From assembly GCA_001794215.1 (NCBI GenBank), contig MGJK01000020.1:1016-65015 (forward strand): a stretch of DNA of 64,000 nucleotides. Reading direction: 5' to 3'. Below are positions 11,242 to 62,899 of this stretch, piece after piece. Each line of letters starts with the position of its first letter. Within the stretch, counting starts at the first letter, position 1. The position numbers were made by a program, and so were the translations under genes. The notes below the pieces were generated by a model, which had not been told where the DNA came from, searched no databases, and saw only the letters and a program-made list of their open reading frames with translations. This DNA is from Candidatus Yanofskybacteria bacterium RIFCSPHIGHO2_01_FULL_44_24. Its GTDB lineage: Bacteria; Patescibacteriota; Minisyncoccia; 2-02-FULL-40-12; GWA2-44-9.

Positions 11242-12264
11242 ATGAATAAAATCAACCGACCGGCTGGCAGAAAGAAAATTATCGTAATCGTAGGGCCCAC
11301 AGCTTCAGGAAAATCCGATTTAGGCGTTGAATTGGCCCGAAAATTTAATGGAGAAATAATATCGGCCGACTCAAGGCAGGTGTACAAAGGAATGGATATC
11401 GGCACCGGCAAAGTCCGAAGAGATCGGACTTTGCCGAAGTTAAAAGTTTTCTTAAAGAAGAATTTTTATTCAGAAGGAGTAAGGCATTATTTATTGGATA
11501 TGGTTTCGCCGAAAAAACAATTCACCGCTGATGATTTTAAAAAACTGGGAGAAAAAACCATTAAAAAAATCCTGGGAGAAAATAAAATTCCGATTATAGT
11601 CGGCGGAACCGGATTTTATATAGATATCCTCCTGGGCCGGATGAAAACGGCTTCGGTGCCGCCAAATTTAAAACTGAGAAAAACTCTCGATAATAAACCG
11701 GCTAAACGATTGTTCGAGATGCTGTTAAAGCTTGACCCCCAACGAGCTAAAACTATCGACCGCCATAATAAGCGCCGACTGATAAGAGCATTAGAGATTA
11801 TCCTCACCACAAAAAGACCTTCTCTGACTACCTACCACTTACTACCTACTACTAACTACAAGGTTTTATGGCTCGGTATAAACCCCGGAAAAGAAGTCCT
11901 GGCTAAGAAAATAAAAAAACGCCTCGACCAAAGATTGGATCAAGGAATGATTAAAGAAGTATTTAAGCTCCGTAAACAAGGAATGAGCTGGAAGAGGCTC
12001 GATAACTTCGGTCTCGAATACCGGTGGCTCTCGCGCTACCTAAAACAATTTTCAATTTTCAATTTTCAATTTTCAACAAAACCAAACGCCGAGAATTTTA
12101 AGAAATCAGAATATTATCAGAATCTTTTAAGGGATATTATCAAATACTCGAAACGCCAGATGACCTGGTTTAAGAGAAATAAAGAGATCCATTGGCTGAG
12201 CTCTAATGAGGCGAGTGAGCTCAGAAAGGCAGAGGGGCTGACGAGAAAATTTATTTATTCCTGA
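11242..12264 (+). CDS. miaA: tRNA dimethylallyltransferase
   Basis: P-loop IIVIVGPTASGKS and ...SADSRQVYKGMDIGTGK. The ORF in the track starts earlier; the ATG at 11242 is preferred. The coding (CAATTTT)x4 repeat at 12048-12078 lies in the C-terminal part. Confidence 0.85.
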   Translation: MNKINRPAGRKKIIVIVGPTASGKSDLGVELARKFNGEIISADSRQVYKGMDIGTGKVRRDRTLPKLKVFLKKNFYSEGVRHYLLDMVSPKKQFTADDFKKLGEKTIKKILGENKIPIIVGGTGFYIDILLGRMKTASVPPNLKLRKTLDNKPAKRLFEMLLKLDPQRAKTIDRHNKRRLIRALEIILTTKRPSLTTYHLLPTTNYKVLWLGINPGKEVLAKKIKKRLDQRLDQGMIKEVFKLRKQGMSWKRLDNFGLEYRWLSRYLKQFSIFNFQFSTKPNAENFKKSEYYQNLLRDIIKYSKRQMTWFKRNKEIHWLSSNEASELRKAEGLTRKFIYS

Positions 12265-12489: not shown

Positions 12490-14016
12490 TTATTTTAACA
12501 TACCTTTTAGAATCCCCTCGACCACCTGGGGATTAGCTTTGCCCTTGGTTTCTCTCATTGCCATACCGACAAGAAACCTGATTGAAGCTTCTTTCCCAGC
12601 CTTAAAATCCTCGACGGCTTTTGGATTATCCGTGATAACCTTCGCAACTGCCGAATTAAGATCCTCTACGTTAGAGACCTGCTCTAGATTTTTTTCTTTG
12701 ATTATCTGTCCAGGCGAAAAGCCCGTTGCAAACATTTCTTTTAGAACAGTCTGGGCGCCGGACGAGGAAACCTCTGAATGAAACACTCTGACCACTAAAT
12801 CAGCGAACATTTCCGGACTGATCTTAGTATCGGCCGGATCGGCGCCAACGCTGTCGGCCATTCTCTTCAGTTCGGTAATGACGTAGTTAGAAGCAAGCTT
12901 TAAAAGCCGGCCTTGGTGTTCCGGATCCGGTTTTTTAAGGTGATCAAGCCTATCAAAAGATAACAATTCGCTGGCAACATGCTCAAAGTAATCTCCTAAC
13001 GGCTTATTAACCGTAAACATCTCTACGTCATGGCCCGGCAATCCGTACTGTCTCACGAATCTTTCTCTCCTTTGCTGAGGCAATTCCGGCATTTCCGACC
13101 TGATCTTTTCGGCAGAAAACAGGGTTGGCGGCCCGCCCGTTGCGGGCGAGGCTCGCCCATTCGCAATGCGAATGGGCGGCAGATCAGGCTCCGGAAAATA
13201 GCGGTAATCATGGGCCTCTTCTTTGGAACGCTGGCTGAAGCTTTGTTTTTTAAACTCATCCCAGCCTCGGGTTTCCTGTTTTATCTTTTCTCCGGATTCC
13301 AACAACTCTCTCTGCCTTTTTATTTCATAGTCAACCGCGTCGGCCGCAAATTTAACCGAATTAATATTCTTAATCTCTACTTTGGTGCCCCAGCTTCCAT
13401 CAGGATTGGTTAAAGAAATATTGACCTCAATGCGCATCTGGCCCTTTTCCATATTTGCATCGGATACCTCAAGATACCGCCATATAAGTTGCAACTCTTC
13501 GGCGAATCTTTTAACTTGGTCGCCATTCTCAAAATCAGGCTCGGTTACTAATTCCATCAAGGGCACGCCAGCCCGATTGTAATCAACCAAAGAGTAATTT
13601 TTGTCCGGCAGATGATATAAACGTCCGGCATCTTCTTCTAAGTGAATCCGCGTTATACGAATTTTCTTTGATTGTGAGTTATTGGTCGTAGGTTGTAGGT
13701 TAAGGTATCCTTCATAGCACAAAGGTTTCTGATATTGGGATATCTGATAACCCTTAGGAAGATCCGGATAAAAATAATTTTTGCGTTCAAAAAACGTATC
13801 CTCGGCAATTTTACAGTTAAGAGCGAGGCCGGCGGTTATCACCTTTTCAATGGCCGCCATATTAATTACCGGAAGAGTTCCCGGATGACCCATGCAAATC
13901 GGACAAACGTTAATATTGGGATGCTTTTCATCCGGATCATTTAAAGAATCGCAGAACATCTTGGTCTTCGTTTTTAACTCTGCGTGTACCTCCAGTCCTA
14001 TAACAGGTTTGTACAT
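12490..14016 (-). CDS. gatB: Asp-tRNA(Asn)/Glu-tRNA(Gln) amidotransferase subunit B
   Basis: MYKPVIGLEVHAELKTKTKMFC... and the conserved ...YRYFPEPDLPP...PELP region. Confidence 0.9.
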   Translation of the reverse strand: MYKPVIGLEVHAELKTKTKMFCDSLNDPDEKHPNINVCPICMGHPGTLPVINMAAIEKVITAGLALNCKIAEDTFFERKNYFYPDLPKGYQISQYQKPLCYEGYLNLQPTTNNSQSKKIRITRIHLEEDAGRLYHLPDKNYSLVDYNRAGVPLMELVTEPDFENGDQVKRFAEELQLIWRYLEVSDANMEKGQMRIEVNISLTNPDGSWGTKVEIKNINSVKFAADAVDYEIKRQRELLESGEKIKQETRGWDEFKKQSFSQRSKEEAHDYRYFPEPDLPPIRIANGRASPATGGPPTLFSAEKIRSEMPELPQQRRERFVRQYGLPGHDVEMFTVNKPLGDYFEHVASELLSFDRLDHLKKPDPEHQGRLLKLASNYVITELKRMADSVGADPADTKISPEMFADLVVRVFHSEVSSSGAQTVLKEMFATGFSPGQIIKEKNLEQVSNVEDLNSAVAKVITDNPKAVEDFKAGKEASIRFLVGMAMRETKGKANPQVVEGILKGMLK

Positions 14017-22532: not shown

Positions 22533-22812
22533 CGCGGGCGACGGGGCTCGAACCCGCAACCTCATCCGTGCACTTATCTAATATTTTCATATTAGGGTGG
22601 ACTATATCTTGCTCGTGTCTCAATAGAATTAAGATTTAGAGTCTCTGGTATCTAGTCTCTACGGCGCCCCCGCCATAGCGGGGTTCCCACGGTATTACCC
22701 GAGCTTTCGCTGTAGGGCTTCACCGTTATCCCAAAGTTATTCATCTTATAGTTTCCTATAAGAGCTGCGTGACTCCACAGGGATGCGATCTAACCAATTG
22801 ATCTACGCCCGC
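22533..22812 (-). tRNA. tRNA-Asp(GUC) interrupted by a group I intron between positions 35 and 36 (exon 1 22812-22777, exon 2 22570-22533)
   Basis: Spliced sequence: GCGGGCGTAGATCAATTGGTTAGATCGCATCCCTGT|CACGGATGAGGTTGCGGGTTCGAGCCCCGTCGCCCGCG. The cloverleaf is perfect. T-arm GCGGGTTCGAGYCCCGT matches E. coli tRNA-Asp. The discriminator is G73. The anticodon loop is CUGUCAC. CCA is not encoded. Confidence 0.85.
22571..22776 (-). mobile_element. Group I self-splicing intron (IC3 / Azoarcus-like), ~206 nt, with no internal ORF
   Basis: P1 by exon CUGU|G pairing with IGS CGCAG, placing a U.G wobble at the splice site. P2 hairpin CTTATAG-GAAA-CTATAAG. A GCGAAAGC GNRA tetraloop. The conserved GUAGAGACUAGA (J8/7-P7) word. 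The S element AAGATATAGTCC. Terminal G before the 3' splice site. Confidence 0.8.
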
Positions 22813-23564
22813 AATAAATTTTTAAAATAATGCTCAAATATAACCTTTTTTCTGCTTAAATACAACTTCCCGGCATCCTTATACATAAAGTTATATAGAC
22901 CAAAGCTGTCGTTAGAAGAGAAACATAATCGATGACCTTGGGCATAGAATAGAGTCCCTCCCTTAACAACCGCGTACTTTTTTAATACGCCCCAAAGTCC
23001 TTTTAAAAATTTCTTACTTCCTGAGGTAAGGCCGGTTATAATAATTTTGCTTTTATGCTTGCGGTCTTTTTTCTGATATTCCGACGCAGATACATGTCCA
23101 TCACCATCAAAATAGCCTCTTAAAAAATGTGGGGCAAGCGCTCGAGGTATCTTTGGCATTTTTAGAATTAGGCTTTTATTCGGCATAAAGCCCAGACGTA
23201 GAAGATCCTTGAATATCTCCTTGCTTCCAATCTGTATTTGATATGCCTTTTTCCAGTTTTTATTTTGTAAGTTTTTCTTTCTGATATAAATTTTATGATC
23301 AGAGCCTAAACAAAACTTGATCTTCTCAAGAATATCTCGGTCGGTACTATAGAATGCGATAAAATGAGCGCCTCGCTTGTTTTTGATCATATTCCCATCA
23401 GCCGCAAAAAACCCTAAAACATAAGTCATTTCTGGCGACCAATTCTTGAAAAAATCCTCATTCTTAGCTTTAAATACGGGCATTTTACCAATAAATTCTA
23501 CCGCATTTCCGGCAAAATTAAAAGCCCGCATAAAGCGGGCTTTTGAAAATTTTATCTGTCCCAA
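22803..23564 (-). CDS. LAGLIDADG homing endonuclease (double-motif), free-standing, 3' end overlapping the tRNA-Asp 5' end by 10 nt
   Basis: Two LAGLIDADG motifs: LGFFAADGNM and LRGYFDGDGHV. The likely true start is MPVFKAKNEDF at about 23483. The stop TAG lies inside the tRNA acceptor stem. Confidence 0.8.
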   Translation of the reverse strand: MGQIKFSKARFMRAFNFAGNAVEFIGKMPVFKAKNEDFFKNWSPEMTYVLGFFAADGNMIKNKRGAHFIAFYSTDRDILEKIKFCLGSDHKIYIRKKNLQNKNWKKAYQIQIGSKEIFKDLLRLGFMPNKSLILKMPKIPRALAPHFLRGYFDGDGHVSASEYQKKDRKHKSKIIITGLTSGSKKFLKGLWGVLKKYAVVKGGTLFYAQGHRLCFSSNDSFGLYNFMYKDAGKLYLSRKKVIFEHYFKNLLRA

Positions 23565-25009: not shown

Positions 25010-25050
25010 GAAATGACTCCTTCTGATTTAAAAGATCACCCCGTACTAAT

Positions 25051-25100
25051 ACCACAACAAAGGGCATCTTTGCAATTGCAAAGATGCCCTTTGTTGTGGT
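25051..25100. repeat. 50-bp perfect palindrome ACCACAACAAAGGGCATCTTTGCAA|TTGCAAAGATGCCCTTTGTTGTGGT
   Basis: 25-bp arms with no mismatch. It shares the core CAACAAAGGGCATCTTTGCAA with 25684-25719. Confidence 0.85.
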
Positions 25101-25145
25101 ATCCAAGATAGTTTTAAACTTTCGTATTTAAAATTTAGATATTGT

Positions 25146-25610
25146 TTAGGATTTTTCTTCGAGAGAGGGATGCCAATAAATTTTTTCTATTTTACGGGTG
25201 CCGTTATAGGTATAATGGTGCTTTGCAATAAATCCTGTATCGCGAGAGCTATTGCTAACGGCCATATCGTTGCCCATATAAAACCCGATGTGATAATGCT
25301 CTTGGCCGTCACCGGAAGAGACTTTTTTCTCCCAAACCAAAACAGCCCCCGGCCTCGGTTCCTTCGCCTCTTTCCAGCCGAACTTAATCATATCTTTTTC
25401 GGTACTCTTCACATTCGCATGCAGATCTGTGATCATTTTTGATAAATATAAAATCGAGGAAACAAAAAAGGCACAGCTCAAGCCTCCGTCTTTTAGAATA
25501 TCAATTTCTTTTCCGTCAATTTCCGCGTATAAATTCCTGAACATCCAGTTTTCACCCTTAACTGCGTTCTCTATCAGGGTTAAGTAGTTTTTTGTCAATG
25601 AAAGTTTCAT
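25146..25610 (-). CDS. hypothetical protein with a Cys...His pattern (possible NlpC/P60- or CHAP-like hydrolase)
   Basis: GLSCAFFVSSIL ... HIGFYMGND. The assignment is tentative. Confidence 0.3.
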   Translation of the reverse strand: MKLSLTKNYLTLIENAVKGENWMFRNLYAEIDGKEIDILKDGGLSCAFFVSSILYLSKMITDLHANVKSTEKDMIKFGWKEAKEPRPGAVLVWEKKVSSGDGQEHYHIGFYMGNDMAVSNSSRDTGFIAKHHYTYNGTRKIEKIYWHPSLEEKS

Positions 25611-25630: not shown

Positions 25631-25719
25631 AACCAGAAACTCCGCAAAAAGCGGAGTTTCTGGTTGTTCATTTTCTTATCCTCAACAAAGGGCATCTTTG
25701 CAAAGATGCCCTTTGTTGA
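25631..25719. repeat. Two adjacent perfect palindromes: AACCAGAAACTCCGCaaaaaGCGGAGTTTCTGGTT (25631-25665) and CAACAAAGGGCATCTTTG|CAAAGATGCCCTTTGTTG (25684-25719)
   Basis: Direct reading. The second is a copy of the core of the 25051-25100 palindrome. Confidence 0.85.
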
Positions 25720-29827: not shown

Positions 29828-30346
29828 CTATCCCCCTCCTTTTGTCACCCTGATCCTCAGGAACCGGAAGTCCCCACCGGTTCCTGAACCCTGTCCGGTA
29901 ACCTGAAAGTTAGCCCCCGAGATGTTGTCGATATAGGGCGAGGGTGGATTGCCTCCGTCGGCTTCGTACCTTCCTCCATCCAAGACCCTGAGGAGGTACT
30001 CTTTGCCTACTTCGAGAGAAGGAAATACGCACATCCAACTATTACCGGACCCCTTCCACTCAAGAGGATACCTGGATGGACCTGCTGTCGGATAGTAGGG
30101 CCAGGTACACTCCTTGATCCCACTGAATTTGCCCGTGAAAGACATCTCGCCCAGCTCAACAATCGGTCCAAGCGACGGCAGGGCTTCGTAGTTCGGCCTT
30201 GGCCAACTGTACAGAACCGACACATCCACGAACTCTACCGGAGGTGGGGGCGGGGGCGGAGGTGGGGGCGGAGTGGGAGCAACCTTATCGCAGGCTGCCA
30301 CCAATAGAATAGAAAAAATAGCTATTAGAACCCTCTTCTTGGTCAT
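29828..30346 (-). CDS. Lipoprotein with a poly-proline linker
   Basis: Lipobox LVAAC followed by a P13 tract. Confidence 0.5.
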   Translation of the reverse strand: MTKKRVLIAIFSILLVAACDKVAPTPPPPPPPPPPPVEFVDVSVLYSWPRPNYEALPSLGPIVELGEMSFTGKFSGIKECTWPYYPTAGPSRYPLEWKGSGNSWMCVFPSLEVGKEYLLRVLDGGRYEADGGNPPSPYIDNISGANFQVTGQGSGTGGDFRFLRIRVTKGGG

Positions 30347-37329: not shown

Positions 37330-37500
37330 TATGAAGGGATTTACGGACCGCGACTGGCGGGAGTAAAAGGCAAGATTTTATCAAAAATCTATGCCGTGCC
37401 CTGAATAGGTTAAGGCGAAGCGTCTTTATATCATGCCCTTCATTGGCTAAATCCGAGTAAGATTTTATGACGCGCGCCCAATAACCCAAGACTGAGCGCC
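37330..37500. repeat. Second copy of the ~34-nt GC-rich repeat family (units at 37389-37422 and 37465-37500)
   Basis: ctatgccgtgccctgaataggttaaggcgaagcg matches ctatgccgtaccctgaatgggttgaagcagagc at 16373-16405. The flanking gaagggatttac and gagtaaaaggcaag words are also shared with 16208-16290. Confidence 0.7.
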
Positions 37501-40500
37501 TATTTTCTGACTCCCACCCAAATCTTTTTCTGCGGAGCCAATTCTAATTCTTTTTCTACATCGTATGCCTTAGTTCCGGTCTGACCGGCGATAAACTCTT
37601 TTAATAAAACCTCTTTCTTAATCTCCTCGGCCCATTGATTAACCGCCGCCGCCACGTCTTGGTCGTCTGAATGCCATCGGCTGAAAACTTTTTCATCCAG
37701 TCTGTATTTGGCTTCCTTTCGCATATCTTGCATCTGCCTGATCAACTCCCTCACATAACCTTCATGGATAAGCGCCGGATCAAGATCAAAATCAAGCGCA
37801 ATCTCCGCTTCTTGTTTTCTATTGTAGGCTAATTTCTTCACATTTAACTCGTCCTCAATCAAAACCTCGATGTCCTTCTGAAACTTGCCGCTTCTTTTGA
37901 TACTCGCCGAACGAATAGGCTGACGAACTTTCACCTGTTTTTCTTTTCTCAGAGCCAACCCCGCAGCCACAACATTTCGAGCTTCATCCATCTCAGCCTC
38001 CAATTTGAGGTTTATGGATTTCTTATCGGCCGATAGCCAATCGTGGAGGTGTACGCTTAAGGTTCCTGCTTTATAGCCACGATGCATTCTCCTATGGATA
38101 TCTTCGGCAAGAAAAGGAGCAAAAGGGGCTAAGATCTTGGATAAATCCAAAAGTAAAGACCTCAAAAGAACGAGGGCTTCTTTTCTTTTTCGGGAGCGTC
38201 TCAACCACCAATTAGACAGATCTTCGACGACAAATTTCTCCAGACTCCTTGAGGCCGAAGTCGGATCATACTTATCTAAATCAGACGTAACTTGGTCAAC
38301 CAAACCATTGAATTTAGAGAGCATCCATTTGTCTAATAGGTTAGAACTTGAGGCGAACGATTTGTAACTGGAGACTTCTTGCGAGTAAAGTTCGTAAAAT
38401 CTTACACAATTTTGCAAAGTAAATATAAACCCTTTAAGGCGGTCTTGGGCGCTCTTTTTACTTACGACTATGGATTCGCCTAAGGTGCTGGCGGTGTAGA
38501 AATACCAGCGAGTTGCGTCCACTCCGACTAAATCCATTATCTCATCAGGCCTGACCACATTGCCCAAAGATTTGGACATCTTCTTGCCATGCTCATCGAG
38601 GGCATGGCCGTTAACCATAACATTTCTGTAAGGAATCCCTTTGCCAAGCAATGTTGATATGGCCAATAAAGTGTAAAACCAGCCCCGAGTTTGATCGATG
38701 CCTTCTATGATGTAATCTGCCGGAAACTGATCTTTGAATGTTTTTGTATTTTCAAAAGGCCAGTGCCATTGGGCGTAAGGCATCGCTCCGGAATCAAACC
38801 AGACATCGATAAGGTCAGGAACTTTTTTCATAACTGCTCCGCATTTCTGACACTTGATGGAAATTTTATCGATAAATGGCCGATGAAGATCTAATTCTCC
38901 ATATTCATTTCGAGGAAGTGATTTCCATTCTAACGGTTCGAGCGAAGCCAAAGGAGGATACCAGCCTTTTTGCCTGTTTTCCAAAATTTCTTTTTGATCT
39001 TTTCCGGAGGCCATATTGTACAGGAGCCAAAGAGGATCTCCGTGTCCGACGATAAGTATCCGCTTTCCCGAATATTTAGATTCCAGATCGTTAATGAAAT
39101 CCTCCGTCCTCTTTCTGACATCGTTCCAGCTTTCTCCGTCGGGATGAGTTTTAAAATTAAAATCTGGTCTTAGGTCTTTAACCGGACAAAGCCTGTGGGC
39201 TTTGTCCTCGCAGCTTACGCCGTGAACTATTTCTGCAAGCCTTTGATCTTCTTCTACTTTCACATGGATTAGTCTGCCGATAATTTCTGCCGTTTCTTTG
39301 GTACGCATGAAAGGAGAGGTGAAAATGATATCCGCCCCGCCCTTTCGGTCAAGTTCTTTGGCGGCCTTTTCAACCTGCTTTTTCCCAATCGAAGTAAGCA
39401 GGTACTTGTCTGATTTCAACACGGAACTGATTATCATTTTCCCCGATTCATCCCGAGTAGTACTGCCGTGCCGAATAATATAGTATGTATTTTTCCGGCC
39501 TATCGCCCTGCTTTCAATTTCCTTAACCGAACCCAAAACTTCATGGCTCTGGCACTTTACACATTCCCAAACCGGCAACGGAGTACCCCAGTACCGTTCC
39601 CGGGAAAAAGCCCAATCCTTTCCTTCTTTGAGCCACTGGCCGAATCTCCCCTCTTTTATATGCTCGGGAATCCAATTAACCTTGGAGTTATCCTTGATCA
39701 GCTGATCCCGGACTGCCGATATTTTTATAAACCAGGAGCTCTTGGCGTAATAAAGGAGCGGGGAATGGCATCGCCAGCAGAACGGATAATCATGCTCGTA
39801 CTCCTCTTCTTTCAAAAGAGCGTTTTTTGCCTTGAGACTGTCCATTATTTTCTGGGTGGTTTTTTCTTCGGTCGGCTTGTCTTTGTGTTTTACGATCATC
39901 CCGTCAAAGTCCTTCCCCACGCCGGTGAATCTCCCCTGCTCATCAACAGTATGAAATTTGGGCAGGCCTAATTTTGTTCCAAGGACATAATCGTCTTCTC
40001 CGTACATCACGGCCGTATGGACCACGCCCGTACCGTCATCGGTAGAAACAAAATCAGCTTCATAAACTTTATAGGAAGTTTTTGATTTCAGCTCTTTGAT
40101 ATCGAAAAGGGGCTCGTACTCTAAACCAACCAGGTCGCTGCCCTTGAATTTGGAGTCGTGAATTTTCAATCCAGGATCGGCCCTGAAAACTTTCTCAACT
40201 AAATCCGAGGCGAGAATATATCTCTCCCCCTCTTTCTCGACAACTGCATATTCGATGTCCTTGCCCACCGCTAAAGCAACGTTACCCGGAAGCGTCCAGG
40301 GCGTGGTTGTCCAAGCCAGAATATAAGTCATTGCCGGAGACAACTCCTTAATTTTTAGTTTTAAATTTTTAATTTTAAACTTAATAATAACCGACCTGTC
40401 TTTTACTTTTTCATATCCCTGAGCAACCTCATGCGAAGAAAGCGGAGTTCCGCATCTGACGCAAAAAGGCAGAACCTTATGGGCGCGGTACAGTAGCTTT

Positions 40501-40985
40501 TTTTTCCAAATTTGCTGAATGATATACCAGAGAGTTTCTATATAATTATTCTCATAAGTTATATAGGGGTCTTTCATGTCAAGCCAAAAACCCATTTTCC
40601 GGGTCATGGCCTCCCATTCTTCTTTGTATTTCCATACGCTTTCTCTGGCTTTCTTGTTGAATTTCTCGATTCCATAGTTCTCGATGTCTTTTTTGCTTTT
40701 GAACCCAAGTTCTTTCTCGATTTCGATTTCAACCGGCAAACCATGAGTATCCCAGCCCGCCTTTCTTAAAACAAAAAATCCCCGCATAGTTTTATAGCGG
40801 CAATACAGGTCCTTATAAACCCGAGTCAAAAAGTGTCCGATATGAGCCCTCCCGTTAGCAGTCGGCGGTCCTTCAAAAAAAACGAACCTCTTGCCCTTCC
40901 GGCGCAGATCTAAAGACTTTTTAAAAATATCGTTTTTATGCCAAAAATCGAGTGTTTCCGACTCAACTCTCTTGAAATCATACAT
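37500..40985 (-). CDS. ileS: Isoleucyl-tRNA synthetase carrying an inserted histidine-phosphatase (PGAM-like) domain
   Basis: HIGH (PPTANGRAHIGH), the editing-domain TTTPWTLP motif, WFDSG and KMSKS. Residues ~500-695 (nt ~38901-39488) read YYIIRHGSTTRDESGKM ... SPFMRTKETAEII ... ILIVGHGDPLWLL, the RHG / second-His pattern of the His_Phos_1 superfamily. They sit between the CxxC zinc motifs. Confidence 0.9.
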   Translation of the reverse strand: MYDFKRVESETLDFWHKNDIFKKSLDLRRKGKRFVFFEGPPTANGRAHIGHFLTRVYKDLYCRYKTMRGFFVLRKAGWDTHGLPVEIEIEKELGFKSKKDIENYGIEKFNKKARESVWKYKEEWEAMTRKMGFWLDMKDPYITYENNYIETLWYIIQQIWKKKLLYRAHKVLPFCVRCGTPLSSHEVAQGYEKVKDRSVIIKFKIKNLKLKIKELSPAMTYILAWTTTPWTLPGNVALAVGKDIEYAVVEKEGERYILASDLVEKVFRADPGLKIHDSKFKGSDLVGLEYEPLFDIKELKSKTSYKVYEADFVSTDDGTGVVHTAVMYGEDDYVLGTKLGLPKFHTVDEQGRFTGVGKDFDGMIVKHKDKPTEEKTTQKIMDSLKAKNALLKEEEYEHDYPFCWRCHSPLLYYAKSSWFIKISAVRDQLIKDNSKVNWIPEHIKEGRFGQWLKEGKDWAFSRERYWGTPLPVWECVKCQSHEVLGSVKEIESRAIGRKNTYYIIRHGSTTRDESGKMIISSVLKSDKYLLTSIGKKQVEKAAKELDRKGGADIIFTSPFMRTKETAEIIGRLIHVKVEEDQRLAEIVHGVSCEDKAHRLCPVKDLRPDFNFKTHPDGESWNDVRKRTEDFINDLESKYSGKRILIVGHGDPLWLLYNMASGKDQKEILENRQKGWYPPLASLEPLEWKSLPRNEYGELDLHRPFIDKISIKCQKCGAVMKKVPDLIDVWFDSGAMPYAQWHWPFENTKTFKDQFPADYIIEGIDQTRGWFYTLLAISTLLGKGIPYRNVMVNGHALDEHGKKMSKSLGNVVRPDEIMDLVGVDATRWYFYTASTLGESIVVSKKSAQDRLKGFIFTLQNCVRFYELYSQEVSSYKSFASSSNLLDKWMLSKFNGLVDQVTSDLDKYDPTSASRSLEKFVVEDLSNWWLRRSRKRKEALVLLRSLLLDLSKILAPFAPFLAEDIHRRMHRGYKAGTLSVHLHDWLSADKKSINLKLEAEMDEARNVVAAGLALRKEKQVKVRQPIRSASIKRSGKFQKDIEVLIEDELNVKKLAYNRKQEAEIALDFDLDPALIHEGYVRELIRQMQDMRKEAKYRLDEKVFSRWHSDDQDVAAAVNQWAEEIKKEVLLKEFIAGQTGTKAYDVEKELELAPQKKIWVGVRK

Positions 40986-48604: not shown

Positions 48605-48970
48605 GGGGATGTCGGGCTTCGACGAAGCTTACGACCGATAAATGCTGGGGGTGGCATGATCGTTCAGCCACGGAAATCACATCCGATCAATTGAATAGGT
48701 GCCAAAAATTCACCTAATTACGCTTTCGCCTAACATCGTTTAGGTAAGCCATTCCACCGCGGTGTCTACTGGCGGATCATGGAGTGTCATATTGTAGACT
48801 GGACAGTTTTCGTTTTTTTTCTTCCGGAGGCTGTTGAATAAATTAAAAGAAATAGCCGTAGATTATTTTGTCGGTTTTCTACTTTACGGCGAAAGACTAA
48901 ATCGTCTATCTCGGTACACATTTATCGGTATAACTTTCGGACGTGGATTCAACTTCCACCATCTCCACCA
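48605..48970 (+). ncRNA. ssrA: tmRNA (SsrA), one-piece, ~366 nt; tag peptide AKNSPNYAFA
   Basis: 5' GGGGAUGUCGGGCUUCGACG fits the tmRNA 5' consensus. 3' GGACGUGGAUUCAACUUCCACCAUCUCCACCA matches the E. coli 3' end GGACGCGGGUUCAACUCCCGCCAGCUCCACCA. Resume codon GCC at 48701; reading frame GCC AAA AAT TCA CCT AAT TAC GCT TTC GCC TAA with the stop in a hairpin. Confidence 0.9.
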
Positions 48971-49917: not shown

Positions 49918-50076
49918 GTCAAACACCTCCTATATGGGAGGTGTTTTAAAATCACGCCACCCTTTATGATATATCATAAAGGGTGGCTGTTCACTATATC
50001 ATTGCCAAATTCGATTTGAAATTAAAATCCATAGTAAAGGCGGGTTTTTAATTAACAAAACCGCCTTAAGCGGCGG

Positions 50077-51839: not shown

Positions 51840-52604
51840 TCATCTAAAAAATTCCTTCCACTCTGCGGGATAATCTATTTTTATGGTCTTAAACTCTTCC
51901 GTCGTAGCCGTTCTGAACGTAACCTCGGTAGCACATAAGGCTATATCTCTGCCATTCTTAAATCGTAAATCTTCATTCTTAAATCCATATTTAGTATCCC
52001 CCGCTATCGGGTGGCCCGATTCGGAAAGCTGAACCCTTATCTGATGAAACCGACCTGTCTTCGGTTCTATTTTTAGAAGGGAAAATTTATCATTCGCCCT
52101 TACTGTTTCATAATAAAGTTCCGACTCTTTGCCCTCATCGGAAACCTCAGCGATTCTTTCGTCCTCTTTTTTTACCAAAGAATGACGCAATATGCCATTG
52201 GCCGGATCCATTCGTCCGACTACCACTGCATGATATATTTTGCTTACATCCCGGCTCCTGAACTGTTCAGATAACCTTGAAGCGCCCTTGGAGGTCTTGG
52301 CAAATAAAACAATGCCCGCAACTGGCCGGTCTAAACGATGCACGATCCCCAAGAATACATTGCCTGGCTTATTATATTTTTTCTTTAAATATTCCTTAAC
52401 CTCCCCGAAAAGACTGTGGTCGCCGATACTTTTCGAAGAAGCGGGTTGGAACCCGTTAGAAGTCCGACTTGCCAAAGGCATGTCGGCAGACATCCTAAAG
52501 GATGTCTTACTTCTAACGGGTTGAACTAAAACGCCCGCAGGCTTATAAACCGCAATCAGATGATTGTCTTCGTATAATATTTCGAGATTCTTGGCGGAAA
52601 GCAT
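51840..52604 (-). CDS. rluA: RluA-family pseudouridine synthase with an in-frame palindromic-element insertion
   Basis: Catalytic GIVHRLDRPVAG. About 100 nt of nested palindromes (52436-52540) is inserted in frame upstream of the catalytic motif. Confidence 0.8.
   Translation of the reverse strand: MLSAKNLEILYEDNHLIAVYKPAGVLVQPVRSKTSFRMSADMPLASRTSNGFQPASSKSIGDHSLFGEVKEYLKKKYNKPGNVFLGIVHRLDRPVAGIVLFAKTSKGASRLSEQFRSRDVSKIYHAVVVGRMDPANGILRHSLVKKEDERIAEVSDEGKESELYYETVRANDKFSLLKIEPKTGRFHQIRVQLSESGHPIAGDTKYGFKNEDLRFKNGRDIALCATEVTFRTATTEEFKTIKIDYPAEWKEFFR
52436..52540. repeat. RPE-like palindromic element inside the rluA coding sequence
   Basis: Perfect inverted repeat AACCCGTTAGAAGT (52450-52463) / ACTTCTAACGGGTT (52509-52522). 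Inner palindromes GACATCCtaaaGGATGTC, TGCCaaaGGCA and CGGGTTggAACCCG. Confidence 0.75.
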
Positions 52605-62515: not shown

Positions 62516-62860
62516 ATGACCCGAGTCAAAAGAGGCGTACAAGCTAATCGAAGGAGAAAGAGGCTGCTGAAACATGCAAAGGGTTTTATGTGGACCCGCG
62601 ATTCCAAGTACCGCCAAGCCAAAGAAGCCCTTCTCCATGCCTGGTCATTCCAATTCGTAGGAAGAAAGAACAAGAAAAGAGACTTTCGAAGATTATGGCA
62701 GGTCAAGATAGGAGCCGCGGCCAAAGAAAACGGAATAAGCTACAGCAGACTGATCGACCGGCTTCATAAGGCCAAGATAGAGCTCGATAGGAAGATACTC
62801 GCCGATCTGGCGGAAAACCATCCGGAGACGTTTAAGAAAATAATCTCCCAGTCACAATAA
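62516..62860 (+). CDS. rplT: 50S ribosomal protein L20
   Basis: MTRVKRGVQANRRRKRLLKHAKGF. Confidence 0.9.
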   Translation: MTRVKRGVQANRRRKRLLKHAKGFMWTRDSKYRQAKEALLHAWSFQFVGRKNKKRDFRRLWQVKIGAAAKENGISYSRLIDRLHKAKIELDRKILADLAENHPETFKKIISQSQ

Positions 62861-62899
62861 ATCCCCGATCGGGGATTTATTGTGACTGGGAGAGTTCTT
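62856..62899. repeat. 44-bp perfect palindrome CCCAGTCACAATAAATCCCC|GATC|GGGGATTTATTGTGACTGGG that supplies the last codons and stops of both convergent ORFs
   Basis: Each arm encodes ...SQSQ* for rplT (+) and for the 62877-63131 ORF (-). It acts as a bidirectional terminator. Confidence 0.85.

Follow-up and report, generated by a model that had tools for sequence, protein, structure and literature searches.

A palindromic element lying in frame in rluA of a Candidatus Yanofskybacteria genome, and the family to which it belongs

The described systems closest to the element reported here are the Rickettsia palindromic elements (RPEs), bacterial MITEs, and REP/REPIN sequences. RPEs, in the passages of PMC10969869 and PMC3733652 that summarize Ogata et al. 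(2000), are about 100-150 bp long and confined to Rickettsia. Bacterial MITEs, such as Correia/NEMIS, RUP, ERIC, Nezha, and QMITE, are reviewed in PMC10969869; a known MITE family usually occurs in one genus or species and has its whole sequence in common with a parent IS (PMC10969869). REPs and REPINs are mobilized by a RAYT tyrosine transposase, carry a GTAG or CGTC tag, and make no target duplication (PMC3733652).

We analyzed a palindromic segment in the rluA gene of a Candidatus Yanofskybacteria genome, within a contiguous stretch of 64 kb (the window). This palindrome is very probably a copy of a non-autonomous, cut-and-paste-type MITE that landed in rluA and is read through as a tolerated loop. 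Members of the family have 13-bp terminal inverted repeats (YCCCGTTAGAAGT / ACTTCTAACGGGR), a 4-bp TNNA duplication, and a short interchangeable inner part.

As RPEs are described in those passages, the element resembles them in being a short palindromic repeat that lies in frame in unrelated housekeeping genes and adds a tolerated peptide, here presumably translated, and no transposase is known for either. Its length of 71 bp, in a family spanning about 60-150 bp, its sharp 13-bp terminal repeats, 4-bp duplication, swappable inner part, and presence in other phyla set it apart from those descriptions. The preliminary description of the window had likened the palindrome to RPEs, which is apt insofar as a selfish palindrome colonizes ORFs in frame; it does not extend to membership in the RPE family, given a 71-nt element in Yanofskybacteria with terminal inverted repeats and a target duplication. 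MITE is the better description, since the element is half the size of an RPE, occurs in unrelated phyla, and has terminal inverted repeats with a 4-bp duplication. Like MITEs, it is small and non-coding, recurs in many copies in other genomes, shows nesting, and is occasionally fused in frame to an ORF (PMC10969869). Unlike them, it shares only the 13-bp ends across phyla, carries several unrelated classes of cargo, and had no parent IS in the approximately 1 Mb searched. Hairpin repeats with compensatory stem changes are also found in REPs, which sometimes lie inside coding genes, including pseudouridine synthase genes (PMC3733652), but the rluA element family has a duplication, lacks the tag, and has no recurrent neighbor gene, so no link to a RAYT is seen. 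We classify it as a new family within a known class, namely an RPE-like in-frame selfish element with the anatomy of a MITE. No description of the arm sequences, or of MITEs or palindromic in-frame elements in CPR, was found in the literature. In-frame selfish palindromes have hitherto been treated largely as a Rickettsia curiosity; they now appear in CPR and several phyla as one family.

The insertion in rluA and the predicted protein

The preliminary description had placed a nested perfect palindrome with 14-bp arms in frame inside rluA, adding about 30 residues just upstream of the HRLD motif. The features of this locus, in window coordinates, are as follows.

51840-52604, minus strand: gene for an rluA-family pseudouridine synthase of 254 aa, in which the element is inserted (Pfam PF00849, E 1e-31)
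Residues 89-92 of the product: HRLD catalytic motif of RluA, with catalytic Asp92
Insert-region peptide of the predicted RluA product: PVRSKTSFRMSADMPLASRTSNGFQP
52451-52521, no strand: the 71-nt mobile element itself, with two hairpins between its 13-bp terminal inverted repeats
52451-52463, no strand: left terminal inverted repeat ACCCGTTAGAAGT (family consensus YCCCGTTAGAAGT)
52509-52521, no strand: right terminal inverted repeat ACTTCTAACGGGT
52447-52450, no strand: target-site duplication, copy 1, TGGA on the plus strand and TCCA on the coding strand
52522-52525, no strand: target-site duplication, copy 2, TGAA on the plus strand and TTCA on the coding strand
52464-52486, no strand: variable inner hairpin CCGAC.TGCC-AAA-GGCA.GTCGG (covariation over 24 copies, helix 3)
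52488-52507, no strand: semi-conserved inner hairpin AGACATCC-TAAA-GGATGTCT (family AAGACGCC-loop-GGCGTCT; covariation, helix 2)

The minus-strand ORF 51840-52604 encodes the PseudoU_synth_2 protein, and its frame remains open through the palindromic segment. Both the RluA and the GatB protein of the window are 100% identical to Candidatus Yanofskybacteria database entries. The palindrome is nested and perfect as described, with 14-bp arms (AACCCGTTAGAAGT / ACTTCTAACGGGTT) at 52450-52463 and 52509-52522 and two inner hairpins. The element (71 nt) and one copy of the 4-bp duplication amount to an in-frame insertion of 75 nt, or 25 codons, rather than about 30 residues. This 25-residue insert (PVRSKTSFRMSADMPLASRTSNGFQ) is indeed upstream of HRLD, but hardly just upstream, as it ends 36 residues before Asp92.

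The target duplication of the window's copy is imperfect (TTCA/TCCA, one mismatch), and an exact TTCA duplication is present at the same site in two other loci, L001 and L002. Deleting the element and one flanking TTCA copy regenerates GTT TTA GTT CAA CCC GCT, that is, VLVQPA, and the reconstructed empty site is GTTTTAGTTCAACCCGCTTCTTCG. The landing site would have been a TTCA spanning codons Val27 and Gln28 of rluA. Aligning RluA orthologs, which the preliminary description had named as a check on the insertion, bears it out: in the majority of the 32 aligned homologs (alignment A1; about 220 aa), the segment is absent and VLVQP runs directly into the helix preceding HRLD, while joining the flanks gives VLVQP(A/D). 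The signature PVRS...TSNG(F/L)Q occurs only in P0001 (the window), P0003, P0004, and P0005 among these 32, at an identical site, and the equally close homologs P0002 and P0006 lack the element. In several other homologs, this position holds a shorter hairpin-like insert; in L008, L011, and L012, the rluA site contains short hairpins of the GCCTCGCC type, of the same flavor as the gatB family treated below.

On either strand, the element folds into a three-way junction (ΔG of -52.6 and -55.3 kcal/mol; z of -7.6 and -7.7), and none of 200 shuffles is as stable. In the window's subfamily, the inner part comprises two hairpins that form this junction with the arms.

Since the insert measures 75 nt and has no in-frame stop, the ribosome would read through it. 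An AF2 model of the window's RluA (mean pLDDT 84.8, pTM 0.82) has low confidence only at about residues 31-63, and its top structural match is RluA 2i82 (TM 0.83, target-normalized). Because low confidence is limited to this region and the model superposes on 2i82, the prediction is that the insert forms a disordered surface loop on an intact RluA fold, and the insertion would be tolerated because the predicted enzyme fold is untouched. RluA with its insert is presumably made and active.

Other patchy short inserts recur at defined positions in RluA homologs of alignment A1 (YLPAGRQAEH, GFVSPKQNAKADASK, PSASSGQATE) and are also present in GatB homologs of alignment A2 (PSHKASE, PEATKGS), which points to additional families of in-frame hairpins among the genes of CPR.

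Dispersal of the family and its reading frames

We searched one genome per species for the exact pattern CCGTTAGAAGT-N30-60-ACTTCTAACGG. At least 120 loci carry these exact arms, against approximately one chance match expected, as estimated from the pattern length. Recurrence of the arms, for which the preliminary description had proposed looking, thus holds for other genomes but not within the window, where neither a search allowing up to 3 mismatches nor a relaxed search with 9-mer arms recovered a further arm copy in the 64 kb. Hosts among the matches listed include many Patescibacteria classes, Planctomycetota, Nitrospirae, Deltaproteobacteria, Elusimicrobia, Omnitrophota, Ratteibacteria, and Gammaproteobacteria, as well as one Nanoarchaeota MAG. 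At least 14 MAGs have matches on two or more contigs. A window-specific 22-mer had no match in a metagenome collection that evidently lacks the source genome. The spread does not appear to be phage-borne, since 2.9 million viral contigs yielded a single arm match.

The copies among the matches listed share the flank logo R-T-N-N-A / Y-C-CCGTTAGAAGT on both sides. Outside the 13-bp repeat, an exact 4-bp direct repeat is present in 79 of the 124 copies listed, with the consensus TNNA; atypical duplications (CTCA, TGAG, CGAG) are likewise exact repeats. Because these non-TNNA cases stay exact, the target duplication is more likely to be genuinely 4 bp long than to be 2 bp long beside a 14-bp repeat. 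The target is weakly palindromic (RTNNAY), and the rluA site and a prepilin site both conform to it. Readings based on attC, dif/Xer, and serine recombinases were dropped on anatomical grounds: the order of the arms is opposite to that of attC, and the duplication is 4 bp long and variable in sequence, with non-TNNA duplications still exact. The 11-nt core of the arms is invariant, which the exact search pattern partly builds in. When one mismatch was allowed, distal arm variants were found to change on both sides together (AAAT/ATTT, AGGT/ACCT, AAGC/GCTT, AATT/AATT, and likewise AAGT/ACTT).

Between the arms, the family is diverse. Members among the matches listed range from 52 to about 196 nt, nested ones included, and their inner parts fall into several classes: two hairpins, as in the window; GC-rich two hairpins (CGCGCCCGCGC...); AT-rich and unstructured; and longer, of 100-140 nt. 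The inner part folds significantly better than shuffles in 56 of the 126 copies listed, 44 of which form two hairpins. Host genes with full-length domain matches encode SecA, DnaE, UvrC, Mfd, RibD, HypD, leucyl aminopeptidase, and a sulfatase; in L011, a copy is found at the 5′ end of a gene for IleRS, and copies are common in intergenic DNA too. The GFT motif of prepilin (GGTTTTACC) is occupied by different subfamilies in Planctomycetota and in one Patescibacteria locus. In-frame insertion of such palindromes can give essential proteins (RluA, GatB, SecA, DnaE, UvrC, Mfd) new loops and make their lengths vary, and it confounds gene calling, ortholog alignment, and structure prediction in metagenome-assembled genomes.

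A start codon is abutted by 32 of the 125 copies listed (among loci L011-L126, e.g., L013 3114, L059 5714, L113 4308, L124 1378, and L126 3021). In these, the last base of the element and a TGNA duplication rebuild ATG (24 copies) or GTG (8 copies), opening an ORF of at least 80 codons. Sixteen of the 27 copies with AT-rich cargo are at start codons, with uniform polarity, and sequence resembling a promoter or an SD occurs in several; the start-codon copies of L124 and L126 are flanked upstream by the 3′ end of a tRNA gene. Through such copies, the family may rewire translation starts or promoters.

Whether the element is translated bears on a further explanation, in which it is an untranslated intervening sequence, removed by intron-like excision or skipped by programmed ribosome bypass to leave a protein of normal length. 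Its structure is compact and very stable, and the short direct repeats CAACCCG (coding strand) that flank the rluA insert superficially resemble take-off and landing sites or splice boundaries. Yet removal would free the element from any constraint on length or stops, whereas the length of the insert (element and duplication) modulo 3 is 0, 1, and 2 in 78, 22, and 27 of the 127 copies listed, and copies embedded in ORFs have no in-frame stop. The arms can be read in two frames, as PVRS...TSNG or as PLEV...LLTG, the third frame having TAG/TAA, and both orientations relative to the host genes occur inside ORFs. Among the 34 copies that lie at least 40 codons inside an ORF, 32 have a length divisible by three. 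There is some circularity in this figure, since any copy that broke the frame would divide its ORF and so leave the class; the overall 78/22/27 skew is free of it. Moreover, no ribozyme or intron model matches the element, and the same element is common between genes. An intervening sequence is therefore exceedingly improbable, and the skew toward multiples of three, together with the stop-free frames, speaks for translation of the element over splicing or bypass.

Covariation, mobility, and the mobilizing enzyme

From the window's subfamily, 24 copies were aligned (alignment A3). Changes on both sides are seen in 11 of the 14 inner-hairpin pairs, and 95.6% of cells are paired. The covariation score of 0.365 compares with 0.10 in shuffles, none of 500 of which reaches it, and with 0.04-0.08 in slid controls; for the outer helix, invariance largely reflects the arms required by the search pattern. 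Such strong covariation, along with the very stable fold, is what a functional structured RNA in the mRNA would show, be it a cis-regulatory hairpin, an antisense sRNA, or a processing signal; structure, not mobility, would then explain the conservation. It would also fit the quarter of the family copies listed that lie against a start codon, since a hairpin there could influence initiation. We nevertheless give this explanation very little probability. Mismatches are balanced (11 G-T versus 13 A-C) and both orientations occur in genes, so that there is no sign of one selected RNA strand. In Rfam 15, nothing matches at the element at the gathering threshold, and only two chance miRNA-precursor matches appear up to an E value of 10; a scan for promoters and terminators found no such site near the rluA element. 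Furthermore, the inner part is replaced wholesale between copies, and target duplications and nesting indicate transposition. The inner hairpins are more plausibly maintained through a single-stranded DNA structure adopted during mobilization, or through palindrome-correcting template switching. Covariation of this strength in internal hairpins is not expected of a classical DDE-mobilized MITE and counts against the MITE reading.

Several observations speak to movement. Copies are nested in L018 (4622-4787), L038 (94-255), and L112 (713-908). In one MAG, copies at the starts of two different genes (L060/L080) are identical at 74 of 77 positions; in another, two copies in opposite orientation (L052/L061) are identical at 59 of 60. 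At the same codon of rluA, the elements of the window and of L001 are identical at 68 of 69 positions, while the remainder of the gene is 63% identical, from which it follows that the window's element was acquired recently. The L002 element agrees with that of the window at 59 of 69 positions and has four compensatory pair changes, and the rluA of L005 has the same arms around an unrelated inner part. Taken with the absence of the element from P0002 and P0006, these comparisons indicate that insertion or conversion at the rluA site was recent and occurred on more than one occasion. In L001, a small stand-alone GIY-YIG gene (1291-1548, 85 aa) lies immediately downstream of the rluA that carries the element; it has no counterpart beside the rluA of the window and no association with the element across loci.

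The same comparisons allow an old, vertically inherited, lineage-specific loop of RluA to be assessed, whose DNA became palindromic by chance or selection and whose shared site reflects common descent. Occupancy of one site in four RluA lineages could reflect vertical inheritance rather than repeated insertion: four homologs have the segment at exactly one codon, the compensatory changes of L002 relative to the window fit divergence in situ, and shorter hairpin-like inserts are found at the site in several homologs. Against such a loop, the near-identity of the window and L001 elements includes their loops, L005 combines the same arms with an unrelated inner part, equally close homologs are empty, and, across many phyla, the arms recur with target duplications in intergenic DNA as well as in unrelated genes. 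We thus consider the inherited loop very unlikely and retain insertion of a MITE copy as the preferred explanation.

If so, we infer that the element is mobilized in trans by a transposase. Across the loci that carry the element, approximately 1 Mb in total, arm pairs separated by 150-4000 nt were nested or adjacent small copies, none with a gene between them, and the search yielded neither an autonomous element nor a transposase having these ends; this is the chief weakness of the MITE reading. Nor does any recurrent protein lie beside the copies: all-against-all clustering of ORFs from 120 loci returned housekeeping genes only, and one further cluster was an artifact arising from the translated element itself. 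The 4-bp duplication and CC-type end presumably recall IS of the IS1380, IS701, or ISH3 type, an analogy that we take as a lead only. The reviews gave no indication of an IS family from the 4-bp duplication. The CPR genomes in which a mobilizer would act are tiny and gene-dense and encode very few transposases.

A broader reading, which we offer tentatively and think rather doubtful, is that the CCCGTTAGA-armed elements form an undescribed pan-phylum superfamily with fixed 13-bp ends, modular cargo, site-selective insertion, rebuilding of start codons, and an unrecognized shared enzyme. The cargo would be either a GC-rich hairpin pair adapted for translation in two frames and either orientation or an AT-rich, promoter-like leader; site selectivity would be reflected in the repeated use of one codon (in rluA, and at the prepilin GFT in two phyla); and the mobilizer would be a widely shared enzyme instead of a classical linked transposase.

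The gatB insertion and other features of the window

A second palindrome had been noted inside gatB. The features concerned are as follows.

12490-14016, minus strand: gatB gene, host of the second palindromic insertion (Pfam GatB_N, GatB_Yqey)
13127-13174, no strand: in-frame insertion of 48 nt (16 codons), of a different hairpin family, with two hairpins
13154-13178 (partly native codons) and 13132-13153: the gatB hairpins

The perfect palindrome stands, with 12-bp arms at 13154-13165 and 13167-13178, and a second hairpin lies beside it. The preliminary description had also held that protein length was unchanged there; instead, 16 codons are inserted. A direct repeat, CCGCC, flanks the insertion (13175-13179 and 13127-13131), and solved GatB structures show a 13-residue gap exactly at the palindrome. 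The insert is absent from P0128 (84% identical; alignment A2) and from many other close CPR homologs; other close CPR GatB homologs carry IRIANGRASPA..GGPP or further inserts at the site, e.g., NSKSE...QN and DKRQ...RDQG. The hairpins show compensatory changes in L134 and L135, and L136 lacks the insertion. When the conserved gatB motif was scanned for, 46 loci were recovered, three of them gatB and many just upstream of FAD-oxidoreductase genes; some matches in high-GC DNA look like chance. One locus, L174, has the full two-hairpin architecture with a GCCGCC repeat in another gene. Because the motif recurs at other genes, we regard the gatB palindromes as a second, different family of dispersed hairpins.

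The gatB site is also where a local origin by template switching, that is, inverted duplication of neighboring sequence in place of insertion of a pre-existing element, finds an argument, in that the stem of the first hairpin includes the native codons CCGCCC; correction of quasi-palindromes could, in addition, yield compensatory changes. This origin is nonetheless highly improbable. The arms and inner hairpins of rluA match elements at more than 120 unrelated loci, and the gatB motif recurs in other genes, including the full copy in L174. Insertion of mobile copies remains the preferred reading of the rluA palindrome.

The window contains 30 perfect hairpins whose stems measure 9 bp or more, compared with 2-6 in shuffles. 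Those with stems of 10-13 bp include 11406-11436 (in a miaA-like IPPT ORF), 39184-39207 (in the IleRS ORF), and 29857-29887 (in an unannotated 172-aa ORF). Loop-less perfect palindromes at 62844-62893 (50 nt) and 49956-49987 (32 nt) lie outside all ORFs of at least 120 aa. Two more perfect palindromes, at 25049-25102 (54 nt) and 25682-25719 (38 nt), have the arm CAACAAAGGGCATCTTTGCAA in common and flank a 154-aa ORF (25146-25610, minus strand); these may act as bidirectional terminators or represent a further repeat family. A RAYT/IS200 transposase was considered for this ORF and rejected, its only matches being weak ones to NlpC/P60 and CHAP.

The IleRS-like gene at 37500-40985 (minus strand, 1161 aa) has a His_Phos_1 domain (residues 502-671) between the tRNA-synt_1 halves, and the same IleRS/histidine phosphatase architecture is present in L011 (16538-20059). 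At 22540-22830 (minus strand), a tRNA gene appears to be split in the anticodon loop by a group I intron (RF00028, 22578-22788, 57.8 bits), with both exon halves visible (GCGGGCGTAGATCAATTGGTTAGATCGCATCCCTGT... and ...GGATGAGGTTGCGGGTTCGAGCCCCGTC) and a LAGLIDADG_3 ORF (22803-23564, minus strand) immediately upstream; ARAGORN called no tRNA anywhere in the window. Finally, a tmRNA gene is found at 48605-48970 (plus strand; Rfam, 132 bits), and its tag peptide is AKNSPNYAFA.
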